Part shown: piece after piece, positions 30,993 to 34,546 of the stretch | Numbering within the stretch: the first letter of the stretch is position 1 | How the letters are laid out: every line of letters starts with the position of its first letter | From: Candidatus Sigynarchaeum calidifontis | GTDB taxonomy: Archaea > Asgardarchaeota > Lokiarchaeia > Sigyniarchaeales > Sigyniarchaeaceae | Length of the DNA stretch: 60,919 nt | NCBI GenBank assembly: GCA_030587475.2 | Contig: JAUQYZ020000258.1 | Coordinates: forward strand, 1-60,919 | Direction of reading: 5' to 3' | Translations under genes and position numbers: made by a program | Notes under the pieces: generated by a model | The model's database searches: none | Told to the model about the DNA's origin: nothing | Seen by the model: only the letters and a program-made list of their open reading frames with translations

Positions 30993-31219
30993 GATCGGTT
31001 CCCATTTACCAGCATGATTGTCTTGAATGACCTATCTCAATGCAACCTATTAAGGCCATTTGCATCCATTTCTTATAACTAGATAGAAAGGAGAGCGTAT
31101 GGAGTGGTGATTCGCGGAATCAGCCTTCTCTTGATCAATTTTTAATTCCAGATAATATTATCGACTAGTGCTGCGCTCGACTGCCGGTTTCAAGGGTCGT
31201 GTTATCAAATTAAAACTAA

Positions 31220-31320
31220 GCGCCGATATTTTGGAGGAATCCCTTCAAAAACGGCAATGTCTAGTGGTATGATACGGCCCTGCCACGGCTGTGGCCCGGG
31301 TTCGATTCCCGGTCGGCGCA
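31220..31320 (+). tRNA. tRNA-Gly(GCC) with a 30-nt BHB intron (31228-31257) between positions 8/9
   Basis: Acceptor GCGCCGA (31220-31226) pairs with TCGGCGC (31313-31319), discriminator A; D arm GTCTAGTGGTATGAT; anticodon arm CGGCC-CTGCCAC-GGCTG; T arm CCGGG-TTCGATT-CCCGG; no encoded CCA. Confidence 0.9.
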
Positions 31321-31380: not shown

Positions 31381-32175
31381 TTATGCCGGAACCACGACTG
31401 CATCGACGAACAAGTCATATTCCTCGTTCTCGTCGAGATCGTGGATCCGCACCTTCTCGACCTCGGAACCGCCAGACACCTCCACGAGCTCCGCTTGTTT
31501 CAAGAGCTTGATGTCCGAGCGCTTGACCTTGGTCTTGAGCTCGTCGTTCGTGGCGAGGTCCTTCAATGGCGAGAGCAGTATGACCCGCCCGGTCACTTTC
31601 GTGAGCTCCAGGGCAAATTCCACGCTTTTTTGATCGTACTCGACGACGAGCACGCGCTTGCCCTTGAACTGCTCCGGATTCCCATAACCGTGGTAGACCC
31701 CCTTGCCCACGTATTCGGCGAGGCCAGCCACGCTCTTGGCTTCGCCTGCGGGGCACGCAAACCTCGTCTCGCCTGGTTCGGCTGGACCGTGCTTCCCCGC
31801 CTTGAAGTTCTTGATGGCCTCGTGGAGCGCGTCGGCGGCGAGATTGGAACAATGCATCTTGATCGGGGGCAAGCCCTCGAGTTCGTTGGCCACGTCTTGC
31901 CTCGTGATCCGCATGGCCTCGTCCAGCGTCTTGCCCTTCGCGATCTCGGTTATCATGCTGCTGGTTGCGACCGCGGAACCACAGCCGAAGGTCTTGAACT
32001 TGATATCCTCGATTTTCCCGTCCTTGTCGACCTTGATGTAGATGTCCATCAAGTCACCGCAAACGGGATTGCCGACCCGACCCACGGCCACGTTCTCGCC
32101 TTCCAGCGTCCCGACGTTCCGCGGGTTCTTGAAGTGATCCAGCACTTTTTGCGAATAATTCGTGCTTTTTGACAT
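31381..32175 (-). CDS. iscU: IscU/NifU Fe-S scaffold fused to a degenerate thioredoxin-reductase-like domain
   Basis: YSQKVLDHFKNPRNVG, GNPVCGD, FGCGSA, KMHCSNL; C-terminal part resembles the TrxB NADPH domain. Start 32175 or 32187. Confidence 0.9.
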   Translation of the reverse strand: MSKSTNYSQKVLDHFKNPRNVGTLEGENVAVGRVGNPVCGDLMDIYIKVDKDGKIEDIKFKTFGCGSAVATSSMITEIAKGKTLDEAMRITRQDVANELEGLPPIKMHCSNLAADALHEAIKNFKAGKHGPAEPGETRFACPAGEAKSVAGLAEYVGKGVYHGYGNPEQFKGKRVLVVEYDQKSVEFALELTKVTGRVILLSPLKDLATNDELKTKVKRSDIKLLKQAELVEVSGGSEVEKVRIHDLDENEEYDLFVDAVVVPA

Positions 32176-32183
32176 GGTATGCA

Positions 32184-33365
32184 TCATGCCTCTTCTTTTT
32201 TTGTTAGTGGTGATAGATCCCTCAATCGCTTCACGATGCCCGGTAAAAGCTCGAGGAACTTGTCCACGTCCTGCTGCGTCGTCCAGCGGCCGAGTGTGAC
32301 TTCCAGGGAGCCGTGCGCCTCCTCGTGAAGCAACCCGAGAGCGATGAGCGTGTGGCTCGGCTCCAGCGTCTTCGACGAGCAGGCAGATCCCGTCGACACG
32401 GCGACGCCCTTTGCCTTGAACGATATCAGTATTGACTCGCCCTCGATGTAATCGAATCGAAAATGCGCGTTGTTCGGCAGCCTGTTGATCTTGTGGCCGT
32501 TCAAGTGCGATCGGGGGACAATTTCCAGCACCTTCGCAATGATCTGGTCGCGCCACTGCTGGAAACGAGTGCTCTCGGCCGCCATGCTCGCCATCGATAT
32601 TTCCGCGGCTTTTGCGAAGCCAACGATGCCCGCGATGTCTTCCGTGCCGGAACGGAGCCCGCGTTCTTGCCCGCCGCCGATGATAAGCGGGTTCAACGAG
32701 ATGCCCTTGCGCACGTACAGCGCGCCTACTCCTCTCGGGCCGTAAATGTCGTTCGATGACAGCGTGAGCATGTCCACGTTGTCACGCTGCACGTCGATGG
32801 GGATTTGCCCCTCCGATGCGACCGCGTCCACGTGGAACGCGATGCCTTTTTCCCGCGCGAGTTTCCCGATCTCGGCAATGGGCTGGATCGTGCCTATCTC
32901 GTTGCTGGCGTGCTGGACGGAGATCAGCATCGTGTCGGGCCGGATGCGCTCCGCGAGCTTGTCCAGGCGCACGGTTCCCGTGAAATCGACCGGCACTTTC
33001 GAAATCTCGAAGCCATTTTTCCCGAGGTACTTGGCGATATTGTGGATCGAGATGTGCTCGATCTCGCTAATGATGATGTGCTTGCCCTTTTGCTTGTTTC
33101 TCGTGGCAAAACCGATCAAGGCAAGATTGTTCGCCTCGGTAGCACCAGACGTGAAGATGATCTCGTCTGGCTCCTTCGCGTTGATGAATTTCGCAATCAT
33201 TTTCCGTGATGCATCGAGGGCCTCGGTCGACCAGTCGCCGACCTCATGCAGCGACGAGGCATTGCCGAACTTCTCGTTCATGTATGGTAACATTGCCGCG
33301 ATCACGTCCGGATCGACGGGTTTCGACGACTGGTAATCCAGGTAGACGACCTTTTCCGTGCCCAC
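32184..33365 (-). CDS. iscS: IscS/NifS-family cysteine desulfurase homolog (PLP Lys replaced by Asp)
   Basis: YLDY, FTSGATEANN, IEH, NEIGTIQ, HVDAV, SSNDIYGP, RSGTE, GSACSS; GAGGTGA RBS. Confidence 0.9.
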   Translation of the reverse strand: MGTEKVVYLDYQSSKPVDPDVIAAMLPYMNEKFGNASSLHEVGDWSTEALDASRKMIAKFINAKEPDEIIFTSGATEANNLALIGFATRNKQKGKHIIISEIEHISIHNIAKYLGKNGFEISKVPVDFTGTVRLDKLAERIRPDTMLISVQHASNEIGTIQPIAEIGKLAREKGIAFHVDAVASEGQIPIDVQRDNVDMLTLSSNDIYGPRGVGALYVRKGISLNPLIIGGGQERGLRSGTEDIAGIVGFAKAAEISMASMAAESTRFQQWRDQIIAKVLEIVPRSHLNGHKINRLPNNAHFRFDYIEGESILISFKAKGVAVSTGSACSSKTLEPSHTLIALGLLHEEAHGSLEVTLGRWTTQQDVDKFLELLPGIVKRLRDLSPLTKKEEA

Positions 33366-33399
33366 GAGCCTTCACCTCTCTTGTAAAAACACGGGGAAT

Positions 33400-33762
33400 T
33401 CAGAACCACAGCGTGCCGCCGGCATCGAGCACGAGATCGTTGAGCGTTCCCGCGCCGACGATCTTGACGCCCTGAACGAGATCGACCTTGTCCCAGCCGA
33501 GCATCTGCTTCGAGGCCTCGCACGCGTAGATCTTGATGCCCATCTGCATCGTCTTGTCGAGCATTTCCTTCACGCTCGGAAATGACCCTATTTTTATTTT
33601 CTCCGCAGCACCTGGCTTGAGAACCCGCAAGCCTGTTCCCAGGTAATATATCACGGGATCGAGCTCCATGGCCTTCGCGGTCTGCGCGAGTACCAACGGG
33701 GAGTATTGTCGCTCTGGATTGTCGCTGGTTTGCACGTAAAGCAACATTTTTTCGTTCTTCAT
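33400..33762 (-). CDS. DsrE/DsrF-like sulfur-relay protein
   Basis: GIKIYACEAS conserved Cys, VKIVGAG; GGTGA RBS. Confidence 0.8.
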   Translation of the reverse strand: MKNEKMLLYVQTSDNPERQYSPLVLAQTAKAMELDPVIYYLGTGLRVLKPGAAEKIKIGSFPSVKEMLDKTMQMGIKIYACEASKQMLGWDKVDLVQGVKIVGAGTLNDLVLDAGGTLWF

Positions 33763-33775
33763 CTATTGCTCACCT

Positions 33776-34015
33776 TCACTTGAGTTTCTTGATCAAGAAC
33801 CGGAGATTGCCCTCGTTGTTTTCGAGCTTCACGAGCTCGTGGCCCGTCCGCTTGACGAACCGGGTGATGTCCTCCTCGGCAGCCGGATCGTCGGCCAGCA
33901 CCTCGAGCACCTCGCCAACATTAATATTGTCGATGCCTTCCCTGGTCTTGAAGAGGGGCACGGGGCAGTAGAGGCCGACCGTGTCGATCGATTTAGCGAT
34001 TTTTGGATTCACCAT
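33776..34015 (-). CDS. tusA: TusA-family sulfurtransferase
   Basis: DTVGLYCPVP, GEVLEVLADDP, GH. Confidence 0.92.
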   Translation of the reverse strand: MVNPKIAKSIDTVGLYCPVPLFKTREGIDNINVGEVLEVLADDPAAEEDITRFVKRTGHELVKLENNEGNLRFLIKKLK

Positions 34016-34054
34016 GATCTGCCATCTCCTACTGAAAGAAGGTCCGATATCACA

Positions 34055-34060
34055 TTATAA
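34055..34060 (-). promoter_or_regulatory. TATA-like box for the tusA-dsrE-iscS-iscU operon
   Basis: TTATAA about 40 nt upstream of tusA, with an AGGAG RBS between. Confidence 0.45.
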
Positions 34061-34165
34061 CGTTCCCCTTCACCGCTAGAACCGCACTCGCATTACCTAT
34101 TTTAGATGATAAGCTGAGATTGATCACGAGCTGGATCGAGCCACGCAACCTAGGAAGGGCAGCCA

Positions 34166-34546
34166 ATGGAAAATCTCATCCAGAAAAACTATTACTGCAG
34201 CATTTGCAAGCGTTACCACGACATTACATTGCCCAAGGACCTCGCGAAGAACCGGGAATCGTACCCGTTTGCCCACATCTTTCTTCACAAGATGGAAGGT
34301 AGCAACAACATCGATGATGCCGGTGTCGATATCTTGACGACCCTCTACATCGACGCGAACATGGCTATCCGGGGTTCCGAGGTCAAGAGATTGGTGACTT
34401 GCGATATCATCTCGAAGGACGACTCGAAGAACATCGTCACCGAGCTCATGGAGGAGATGGCGCGGCTGCAAGACGAGCTCACCAAGCTCCAGGCGGAGAA
34501 CAAGGATCTCAAGGCCGAGATCGCGCGGTTGAAATCATCTCGATAG
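34166..34546 (+). CDS. Small hypothetical protein, CxxC/His metal site plus C-terminal coiled coil
   Basis: YCSICKRYH...YPFAHIFLH...LYIDAN..IRG; heptad-rich tail. Confidence 0.7.
   Translation: MENLIQKNYYCSICKRYHDITLPKDLAKNRESYPFAHIFLHKMEGSNNIDDAGVDILTTLYIDANMAIRGSEVKRLVTCDIISKDDSKNIVTELMEEMARLQDELTKLQAENKDLKAEIARLKSSR

Follow-up and report, generated by a model that had tools for sequence, protein, structure and literature searches.

A tusA–dsrE3-like–iscS–iscU operon in an Asgard archaeon associates a lysine-less IscS with candidate sulfur carriers

Where the sulfur of iron–sulfur (Fe-S) clusters comes from in strict anaerobes that have a "dead" IscS, or lack any desulfurase, is an open question. 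The IscS2–IscU pair of Archaeoglobus fulgidus is a case in point, and its structures left the source at "probably sulfide." This IscS2 is reported to be inactive as a desulfurase and to contribute one of its Cys residues as a ligand of the [2Fe-2S] cluster of IscU (PMC7585200, citing Marinoni 2012, Yamanaka 2013, and Pagnier 2014; PMC13066941), and no mention of TusA or DsrE partners was found in the published work as cited there. The minimal archaeal IscS–IscU (MIS) system is described as a cysteine desulfurase together with a scaffold and no further components (PMC12192291, PMC13066941), and SUF is, according to a review, the only system known with an intermediate sulfurtransferase (PMC13066941).

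The present study concerns an operon in a 60,919-nucleotide stretch (hereafter the window) of the Asgard archaeon Candidatus Sigynarchaeum calidifontis. Specifically, tusA, dsrE3-like, iscS, and iscU form four co-oriented genes on the minus strand at 31381–34015, and the ribosome-binding sites that an initial annotation of the sequence had assigned to them are present. The features, in the order of transcription, are:

34016..34165, minus strand: non-coding region upstream of tusA, probably containing an archaeal promoter, read from the sequence
33776..34015, minus strand: tusA, 79 aa (PF01206, E 2.4e-24; motif GLYCPVP)
33400..33762, minus strand: dsrE3-like gene, 120 aa (PF02635, E 2.7e-14; also PF13686)
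32184..33365, minus strand: iscS of the Asp type (MisS-like), 393 aa, GTG start (PF00266, E 7e-77, full length)
31789..32187, minus strand: scaffold domain of iscU, residues 1–133 (PF01592, E 1.2e-49; TIGR03419, E 6e-55)
31384..31740, minus strand: C-terminal domain of IscU, residues about 150–268 (TIGR01292, E 8.9e-12, profile positions 116–231)

The whole iscU gene spans 31381–32187 (minus strand) and encodes 268 aa. The four genes are tightly packed and predicted to be translationally coupled, with spacers of 13 nt between tusA and dsrE and 34 nt between dsrE and iscS, and with the iscS stop and iscU start overlapping as ATGA. Ribosome-binding sites of the GGAG/GGTGA type lie 5′ of the operon genes (GGAG in the case of tusA), and a TTATAA element at about 34055–34060, ~45 nt 5′ of the tusA ATG, makes archaeal promoter function likely in this region. 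A neighboring gene (34166–34546, plus strand) is divergent from tusA. No HscAB, ferredoxin, or A-type carrier genes are present in the operon, and no shdr or lbpA genes lie near it. Two public expression runs, one a metatranscriptome from sludge (matching parts of iscU and iscS) and the other from a bioreactor, each cover a small share (0.05–0.06) of the stretch with short contig pieces of ~90–96% identity from relatives; as contigs without strand or transcript ends, these matches say nothing firm on transcription of this operon.

The IscS protein has the class-V aminotransferase/IscS–NifS fold (PF00266), scores 477 bits with TIGR03402, under the equivalog cut-off of 530.75, and finds its best solved match in A. 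fulgidus IscS2 (4EB5_A, E 3.4e-139). Where canonical enzymes read S-x-H-K-x-Y-G-P, this protein reads SSNDIYGP, with Asp206 (codon 32748–32750) at the position of the PLP Schiff-base lysine; the position was confirmed by alignment to 4EB5_A, which has the same SSNDIYGP, and to the D199K variant 4R5F (SSNKIYGP). The loop cysteine, Cys329 in GSACSS (codon 32379–32381), is kept, and thus the description of an IscS without the PLP lysine but with its loop Cys is correct. Asn205, Asp206, and Cys329 are invariant in 93 IscS homologues. Moreover, the differences between Asp-type and lysine-type IscS are confined to G75A, A106S, Q183A, H205N, and K206D, all of them PLP-pocket positions, while His104 and Asp180 are kept, and 38 of the 44 sequences without the lysine group in a single clade of the tree (SH-like support 96). 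The single clade and the restriction of the changes to the pocket point to a selected new function rather than decay. A decaying pseudo-enzyme was considered and rejected on the invariance of Asn205–Asp206 and Cys329, the single clade, and the high identity across phyla. The substitutions K206D, H205N, and Q183A, taken with the A. fulgidus reports, suggest that this IscS has no desulfurase activity and no bound PLP. By analogy with the same complex, an (IscS–IscU)2 assembly with the IscS Cys as cluster ligand would fit the ATGA coupling and the constant adjacency of iscU.

One way to understand the remodeled pocket is that the lysine-less IscS has become a re-tooled sulfur acceptor rather than a passive partner of the scaffold, with ferrous iron or a persulfide or polysulfide species, for instance, as the new ligand of the pocket. 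The unit would then be a distinct, ancient Fe-S route without cysteine desulfuration, drawing on sulfane sulfur from the environment or from metabolism (as polysulfide, elemental sulfur, or persulfide pools). This reading, which rests on the concerted pocket change (K206D, H205N, and Q183A, alongside the retained His104 and Asp180 and the invariant Asn205–Asp206), is possible but on balance doubtful.

TusA family domains are two-layer α/β sandwiches with the Cys of a CPxP motif. The TusA encoded here matches PF01206 over positions 2–70 of 70, carries Cys17 in CPVP, as had been annotated, and has E. coli TusA (1DCJ and 3LVJ_C, E about 4e-11) as its best solved relatives; the sulfane-binding Cys17 is invariant both in 85 operon-linked homologues and in the TusA alignment. 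The DsrE3-like protein has the DsrE/DsrF fold with exactly one Cys, Cys81 in YACEAS, again in agreement with the annotation of a single-Cys DsrE, and this residue is invariant in 51 homologues and in the DsrE alignment. Its match to NCBIfam DsrE2 is below cut-off (32.6 bits vs 210), and its length of 120 aa and conserved motifs (LYVQTS, PER-x-YSP, VCEAS, and VGAATLNDL) make it look like a subgroup of its own. The best solved relative, 3MC3 (E 4.9e-13), whose Cys aligns with Cys81, is the trimeric DsrE3A SSO1125 of S. solfataricus (PMC11094781). The DsrE3A, B, and C proteins take up sulfur from polysulfide or tetrathionate and transfer it unidirectionally to TusA, and the DsrE-to-TusA order proposed in the initial annotation fits this published in vitro work on DsrE3-type proteins (PMC11094781, PMC4175335). 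A TusBCD/DsrEFH-type complex, which requires three paralogous subunits, was rejected, as the operon has one DsrE-family gene.

TusA and the DsrE-family protein TusD belong to the tRNA 2-thiouridine relay of E. coli (PMC2854127), and ThiS/ThiF genes lie a few genes away from the operon at one metagenomic locus. The operon might thus feed tRNA thiolation or a thio-cofactor, as does E. coli IscS–TusA–TusBCD, with IscS(Asp)–IscU serving as cluster source or platform. We regard this as very improbable: IscS(Asp) is predicted to be incapable of making the starting persulfide, the single DsrE-type gene is unaccompanied by a TusBCD or DsrEFH trio, and the loci examined contain no TusE/DsrC, MnmA, or Ncs6 gene. 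Furthermore, the constant downstream partner is IscU, at 83 of 101 Asp-type iscS loci among the matches listed.

A DNA pattern scan with one exact motif and one genome per species recovered at least 118 Asp-type IscS loci, and upstream genes (same strand, within 1.2 kb) were recorded for the 87 among the matches listed that have at least 900 nt of upstream sequence. These span Asgard, Bathyarchaeia, Hadarchaeota, Thermoplasmatota, methanogen relatives, Archaeoglobus, and some bacterial MAGs. Among these matches, from genomes that are related and hence not independent samples, tusA lies directly upstream of iscS in 74/87 loci (85%), across phyla, dsrE lies upstream in 48/87, at least one of the two is found in 77/87, and neither in 10/87. 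By group, and again among the matches listed, tusA is present at 21/21 Asgard, 25/30 Bathyarchaeia, 3/3 Hadarchaeota, 5/6 methanogen-relative and Archaeoglobi, 4/5 Thermoplasmatota, and 10/13 bacterial-labelled MAG loci; one Archaeoglobus MAG locus (L167) has it directly upstream of the Asp-type iscS. Almost all genomes in the order of the window (Lokiarchaeia-type Asgard) carry one IscS of at least 59% identity and one canonical paralogue of 42–52%; in this order, iscS(SSND) is followed by a long iscU in 20/20 loci, with tusA upstream in 19/20. In contrast, co-oriented tusA or dsrE was found upstream of none of 21 lysine-type iscS paralogues of the same order, nor at the three informative closest lysine-type representatives (P0009 and P0014, whose contigs end at the gene start, were left out). 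The linkage of tusA/dsrE is therefore specific to lysine-less IscS, as the neighborhood survey proposed in the initial annotation was meant to establish, and its conservation within an order, throughout a phylum, and in several further phyla puts the arrangement far beyond chance. The association is not absolute: in 13 genomes of the order dsrE is located away from this locus, one genome of the window's own family (G003) is without tusA at the locus, and in one Thorarchaeota genome iscU is apart from tusA–dsrE–iscS. Many related Loki genomes encode a flavoprotein with Pyr_redox_2, rhodanese, TusA, and rhodanese domains immediately downstream of, and co-oriented with, iscU; this neighbor ties the unit to sulfane-sulfur chemistry. 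Were IscS a re-tooled acceptor, this rhodanese/TusA persulfide-reductase-like neighbor would feed the unit in some Lokiarchaeia.

The loss of one carrier from the linkage in some genomes would be expected if IscS(Asp)–IscU used free sulfide directly, as proposed for A. fulgidus, and TusA and DsrE were regulators or buffers, for example with TusA competing with IscU for IscS, or the carrier pair sequestering reactive sulfane sulfur near the scaffold. Minimal archaeal systems do build Fe-S clusters with sulfide (PMC12192291, PMC13066941), and E. coli TusA and IscU are reported to compete for binding sites on IscS and to alter how sulfur is allocated (PMC11302665). Nevertheless, the invariant carrier cysteines and IscS Cys329 argue for thiol chemistry over mere binding, and 85% adjacency across phyla, among the matches listed, is unusual for an optional regulator; we thus hold the direct use of sulfide to be improbable.

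No description of the linkage between TusA/DsrE and lysine-less IscS was found in the literature searched, although an earlier mention is possible in the primary A. fulgidus papers or the 2022 MIS/SMS paper. The operon had been put forward as an under-described system, and this is true of one part of it, the fixed association of lysine-less IscS with the carriers; the Asp-type IscS itself is already known as A. fulgidus IscS2 (PDB 4EB5/4HVK).

The initial annotation further termed the relay cysteine-independent, which is not supported as stated. The same genome encodes a canonical IscS with SAHKIYGPKG (contig C129), a plain IscU (contig C95), and a SufB-type scaffold, so that this unit is not necessarily the chief route of assembly. 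All five complete genomes examined that carry the module encode a class-V enzyme with H-K and the Cys motif, and none of the five has the module without a lysine-bearing class-V enzyme. In two Atabeyarchaeia genomes, such an enzyme is encoded inside the operon, directly after iscS(Asp), and one metagenomic locus reads iscS(Asp)–iscU–second class-V gene. Cysteine may thus still be the sulfur source: a lysine-bearing desulfurase, canonical IscS or SufS-like, would make the persulfide, and TusA, with DsrE, would carry it to IscS(Asp)–IscU, preserving the IscS-to-TusA direction and linking two paralogues. The canonical paralogue in nearly every genome of the order, the lysine-bearing enzymes in this genome and the complete module genomes, the Atabeyarchaeia and metagenomic arrangements, and the loading of TusA by E. 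coli IscS (PMC2854127) all favor this explanation. However, tusA and dsrE never lie beside the lysine-type paralogue in the 21 genomes, a second class-V gene is found near only 3 Asp-type loci among the matches listed (at least 118), published DsrE3 proteins donate to TusA and do not accept, and the recurrent Loki neighbor is the persulfide-reductase-like flavoprotein, not a desulfurase. On this evidence, we consider cysteine a rather unlikely source.

The recipient of any such sulfur, IscU, retains Cys43, Asp45, Cys69, His112, and Cys113 in a NifU_N scaffold, which bears out the intact ligands originally annotated; the three cysteines are conserved at ≥98% and Asp45 and His112 are invariant in the IscU alignment. 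Among solved structures, those of Methanothrix IscU (7C8M) and A. fulgidus IscU (4EB5_C) match the scaffold best, with Foldseek TM scores by target of 0.82–0.86. The additional domain at residues 150–268, which the annotation did not include, is conserved in 28 homologues and has the fold of a thioredoxin-reductase NADPH domain, with PDB sequence matches 5XHU and 2ZBW. In the AlphaFold2 model, pLDDT is >90 over residues 150–268 and <50 over 136–149, and Foldseek aligns the tail with 2ZBW, 3F8D, and 4ZN0 over about 121–123 columns (rmsd about 2 Å, E 1e-10 to 4e-11). The disordered linker (residues 134–149) carries Cys145, which is only partly conserved. The tail shares its fold with the NADPH-binding domain of low-molecular-weight thioredoxin reductase and TrxR-type ferredoxin-NADP reductase; a functional thioredoxin reductase was rejected, as the tail has no FAD domain, no CxxC (YHGYGN stands in its place), and no GxGxxA (EYDQKS in its place).

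Collectively, we rate the likelihood of a sulfane relay running from the DsrE3-like protein to TusA, IscS Cys329, and IscU at somewhat better than even. The unit would be a four-component variant of MIS, in which IscS, as a member of the lysine-less, pocket-remodeled clade typified by A. fulgidus IscS2, would be unable to desulfurate cysteine and would probably act as a structural partner of IscU that supplies Cys329 to the nascent cluster. The tusA and dsrE3-like genes would provide the missing sulfur-mobilizing function: Cys81 of the DsrE3-like protein would pick up sulfane sulfur and pass it to TusA Cys17, TusA would dock on IscS and hand the sulfur to Cys329, and Cys329 would deliver it to the IscU cysteines, where it would be reduced and combined with iron. 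Each transfer step after TusA is inferred, as is the role of the IscU tail, which most likely serves for docking, for instance of an electron donor. The sulfur could ultimately come from polysulfide, elemental sulfur, or a persulfide pool, or else via a distinct, lysine-bearing desulfurase; environmental sulfide or polysulfide, the source initially suggested, may serve. As a counterpoint, the known direction in E. coli is from IscS to TusA (PMC2854127). Complex prediction for IscS(Asp) with TusA (score 0.01, mark 0.32) counts neither for nor against binding.

The linkage gives a testable answer to how "dead" IscS–IscU pairs are supplied with sulfur, in that a fixed carrier pair at the lysine-less IscS of Asgard, Bathyarchaeia, Hadarchaeota, Thermoplasmatota, methanogen relatives, and Archaeoglobus constitutes a set of concrete candidate donors. 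The linkage is likewise relevant to reconstructing ancestral Fe-S biogenesis, for which the lysine-less forms would represent one old clade with active-site changes under selection.

Among known systems, A. fulgidus IscS2–IscU (PDB 4EB5, 4EB7, 4HVK; D199K 4R5F) has the same IscS subtype, with SSNDIYGP, the loop Cys, and an adjoining iscU. The published work, as cited in PMC7585200 and PMC13066941, deals with a complex of two proteins and suggests that sulfide is the source, and the A. fulgidus IscU (153 aa) is without the C-terminal domain found here. The MIS system (MisS/MisU) of archaea likewise pairs an IscS-like with an IscU-like protein, but it is defined by an active desulfurase and a scaffold with no other dedicated components, whereas here the IscS lacks the lysine and is accompanied by a fixed pair of sulfur-carrier genes; as judged from its sequence, the unit works like a MIS-derived one but departs from the published definition. 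The DsrE3–TusA cascades of sulfur oxidizers (sHdr; Metallosphaera cuprina DsrE3A/TusA) also place a small single-Cys DsrE3-type protein beside TusA, yet they feed a dissimilatory sulfur-oxidizing Hdr-like complex, while the downstream proteins here are IscS(Asp) and IscU. E. coli IscS–TusA–TusBCD shares three families with this operon, IscS, a CPxP TusA, and a DsrE-family member; there, an active IscS donates to TusA, TusBCD has three subunits, and the genes are not clustered with iscU, whereas the IscS here appears inactive, in which case sulfur flow must start elsewhere. Finally, SufS–SufE/SufU follows the same logic, a small Cys carrier shuttling sulfane sulfur to an Fe-S scaffold, although its carriers are unrelated proteins and its donor is an active PLP enzyme.

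The operon at 31381-34015 of the window was described in the initial annotation as four tightly linked, co-oriented genes, and it comprises:

34015-33776, minus strand: tusA, 79 aa; Pfam TusA, E 2.4e-24; Cys17 in a CPVP motif
33762-33400, minus strand: dsrE-family gene, 120 aa; Pfam DsrE, E 2.7e-14; single Cys, in YACEAS
33365-32184, minus strand: iscS, 393 aa, GTG start; Pfam Aminotran_5, E 7e-77
32187-31381, minus strand: iscU, 268 aa; Pfam NifU_N, E 1.2e-49

Spacers of 13 nt (tusA-dsrE) and 34 nt (dsrE-iscS) separate the first three genes, the iscS stop overlaps the iscU start in ATGA, and each gene is preceded by a GGAG/GGTGA-type ribosome-binding site. At the site of the canonical S-x-H-K motif the window IscS has SSNDIYGP, in which Asp206 replaces the PLP lysine, and it retains the loop Cys in GSACSS; IscU retains Cys43, Asp45, Cys69, His112, and Cys113. 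Because genes, Pfam assignments, and motifs all match, the first description of this operon, with its CPVP-bearing TusA, single-Cys DsrE protein, lysine-less IscS with a loop Cys, and IscU with intact ligands, was correct. Two features flank the operon:

31215-31320, plus strand: tRNA-Gly(GCC) gene, convergent to the operon, its end 61 nt from the iscU stop (31251-31320 in ARAGORN)
34166-34546, plus strand: divergent gene for a 126-aa protein (LQDELTKLQAENKDLKAEIARLK) whose N-terminal start is zinc-ribbon-like (Cys-x2-Cys...His) and whose C-terminal part is a coiled coil; perhaps a small regulator

The closest solved structure to the window IscS is Archaeoglobus fulgidus IscS2 (4EB5/4HVK, E 3.4e-139; 4R5F is its Asp-to-Lys variant). 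Since this protein has already been described and carries the identical SSNDIYGP, the lysine-less IscS is a known type. In the passages of PMC7585200 and PMC13066941 that deal with it, IscS2 is described as having no desulfurase activity, and its loop Cys as ligating the [2Fe-2S] cluster on A. fulgidus IscU. Cys329, the corresponding residue in the window, is invariant in 93 homologues. When the Asp-type set is compared with 119 lysine-type representatives, the only consistent differences are G75A, A106S, Q183A, H205N, and K206D, all within or close to the PLP pocket, while His104, Asp180, and the loop Cys are conserved in both types. A FastTree phylogeny of 165 sequences unites 38 of the 44 non-lysine rows in one group (SH-like support 96), the other six being scattered single losses. 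Judging from alignment and tree, the pattern is that of an old, selected subfamily; decay of the enzyme was rejected, given this single well-supported group and the confinement of the changes to the PLP-pocket region. Representatives with Ala and with Pro at the lysine column are also among the closest IscS matches. In an Odin-like Asgard genome of 1.42 Mb in a single contig (locus L082), the order tusA-dsrE-iscS-iscU is kept and IscS reads SANSIYGP, with Ser replacing Asp.

Two IscS paralogues are encoded in nearly every one of the 61 genomes from the window's order, a Lokiarchaeia-type Asgard lineage; one has at least 59% and the other 42-52% identity to the window IscS. The former has SSND-x-YGP and is followed by a long IscU in 20/20 fetched loci, with tusA upstream in 19/20 Asp-type loci; the exception comes from the same family as the window. 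By hand comparison of coordinates, about 37 of 50 genomes of the order have dsrE between tusA and iscS, and in 13 genomes it stands alone elsewhere, still with 70-80% identity:

L017, L019, L021-L023, L027, L029, L031, L032, L040: stand-alone dsrE, with varied neighbors (FeoB-like, AAA, MoxR-like)
L044-L056: iscS loci of these genomes, in which tusA-iscS(Asp)-iscU remain together

The same cluster occurs in several other Asgard families; one of them, a large second family, has the long IscU, and a short IscU is encoded elsewhere. One Asgard genome (L079, G062:C10:9500-17500) has tusA in three tandem copies, then dsrE-iscS(Asp)-iscU with the short IscU. In the closed Thorarchaeota chromosome CP070658.1 (L070 and L150), tusA-dsrE-iscS(Asp) lies about 1.3 Mb from a long iscU, and IscS-IscU adjacency is therefore not obligatory.

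The extra length of the window IscU (residues 150-268) makes up a second domain, which has the NADPH-domain fold of thioredoxin reductase (TIGR01292, E 8.9e-12); its pLDDT is >90 in the AlphaFold2 model, and Foldseek pairs it with 2ZBW, 3F8D, and 4ZN0 at an rmsd of about 2 A. Neither CxxC, GxGxxA, nor an FAD domain was found in this tail by sequence and homologue alignment. In three loci (L080, L107, and L160), the open IscU frame is 450-475 aa long, and its matches to the IscU domain and to the reductase-like tail are two stretches set apart from each other. The part in between may thus, in some lineages, hold a larger insert or more of a reductase-like protein.

Beyond Asgard, with each prokaryotic species represented by one genome, a scan for DNA encoding S-S-N-D-x-Y-G-P-[KR]-G-[VI]-G returned at least 120 stretches, at least 118 of them with Asp-type IscS. 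By record title, the matches listed include Bathyarchaeia, many Asgard lineages, Hadarchaeota, Thermoplasmata, Methanomassiliicoccales, Methanosarcinales, Methanocellales, Methanophagales, Archaeoglobus, and Geoglobus, as well as some MAGs labelled as bacteria. The listed loci were searched with profiles from Asgard homologues and counted only where flanking DNA sufficed; carriers were scored upstream on the same strand within 1.2 kb. Among the matches listed, a sample that is not random and includes related, non-independent genomes, the counts were:

tusA upstream: 74/87 loci
dsrE upstream: 48/87 loci
either carrier upstream: 77/87 loci
both carriers upstream: 45/87 loci
iscU downstream: 83/101 loci

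In an Archaeoglobus MAG (L167), tusA lies 12 nt upstream of iscS. In contrast, co-oriented tusA or dsrE lies upstream of the lysine-type paralogue in 0/21 cases (20 genomes of the order and the window's genome), and, of the closest lysine-type cluster representatives, those whose contigs are informative are plain iscS-iscU pairs or lone iscS genes. The link recurs in other non-lysine representatives: TusA is encoded upstream of one Asp form, and one Ala form is preceded by DsrE and followed by IscU. The carrier association, which the initial annotation had proposed surveying across archaea, is thus present in every phylum-level group sampled and is specific to the lysine-less paralogue. Six bacterial-labelled MAG loci (L123, L108, L139, L100, L177, L143; labels Deltaproteobacteria, Stahlbacteria, Actinomycetota, Pseudomonadota, and 'bacterium') have the full cluster with a long IscU, and L123 is the nearest row to the window IscS in the tree (66% identity). 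These clusters may reflect horizontal transfer or mis-binned archaeal contigs.

Cys17 of TusA is invariant in 85 homologues and Cys81 of the DsrE-like protein in 51. The nearest solved relative of the latter, with the Cys aligned, is 3MC3 (E 4.9e-13), the trimeric DsrE3A of S. solfataricus (PMC11094781). In vitro, DsrE3A, DsrE3B, and DsrE3C load sulfur from polysulfide or tetrathionate and donate it to TusA; back-transfer is slight or absent (PMC11094781, PMC4175335). A further DsrE-TusA gene pair, unrelated to this one and with no IscS linked, is encoded elsewhere in the window's genome (contig C86:22741-23341; 115 aa and about 75 aa).

The most economical reading is a carrier relay into IscS(Asp)-IscU, in which the two carriers would stand in for the sulfur-mobilizing function lost by IscS. 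Sulfane sulfur would pass from DsrE Cys81 to TusA Cys17, and then to IscS Cys329 and the IscU cysteines, with IscS(Asp)-IscU acting as an assembly complex like that seen in A. fulgidus; we infer every step past TusA. The initial annotation had proposed such a relay operating without cysteine desulfuration. This proposal is supported in part, and the published DsrE3 work supports its DsrE-to-TusA order. A sulfane source other than cysteine would fit the absence of the carriers beside the lysine-type paralogue in the 21 genomes sampled. It would also fit a protein of about 800 aa (Pyr_redox_2, Pyr_redox_dim, rhodanese, TusA, rhodanese) encoded on the iscU strand, 0.3-0.9 kb downstream of that gene, in many Lokiarchaeia relatives, which its domain set marks as CoA-disulfide/persulfide-reductase-like, although BLAST found no counterpart in the window's genome:

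L092:4883-7249, plus strand: rhodanese/TusA flavoprotein
L044, L045, L047-L050, L056, L062, L088, L091, L093, L125, L168, L171, L172, L179, L182, L185: other loci with this flavoprotein

Cysteine itself, mobilized by a separate desulfurase, would be the alternative source, and lysine-bearing class-V enzymes are encoded in the window's genome and in five complete module-carrying genomes. The window's genome, a MAG of 5.0 Mb in 269 contigs (89% complete), has a canonical IscS (SAHKIYGPKG) standing alone on contig C129, a plain 150-aa IscU (C95), and one SufB-type scaffold. A variant operon in two Atabeyarchaeia chromosomes places a class-V enzyme directly after tusA-dsrE-iscS(Asp), in iscU's place:

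L153, L189 (Atabeyarchaeia chromosomes); L229:1465-2766, minus strand: class-V enzyme, 434 aa, SIHKMCGP and SGMFC motifs

These motifs mark a lysine-bearing, desulfurase-like enzyme directly linked to the carriers. The evidence on the source points both ways, so cysteine independence has the standing of a hypothesis rather than a result.

Full-text literature searches, with partial coverage of the key papers, returned no paper linking TusA or DsrE to a lysine-less IscS or to the minimal archaeal IscS-IscU (MIS) system for Fe-S assembly. While the IscS type was already known, the fixed four-gene combination appears to be the new part. For anaerobic Fe-S biogenesis, it provides an open question with an answer that can be tested directly. 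In recent reviews, MIS consists of a desulfurase and a scaffold with no further components (PMC12192291, PMC13066941); here, in contrast to that two-component system, the carriers TusA and a DsrE3-like protein are added and the IscS is lysine-less.
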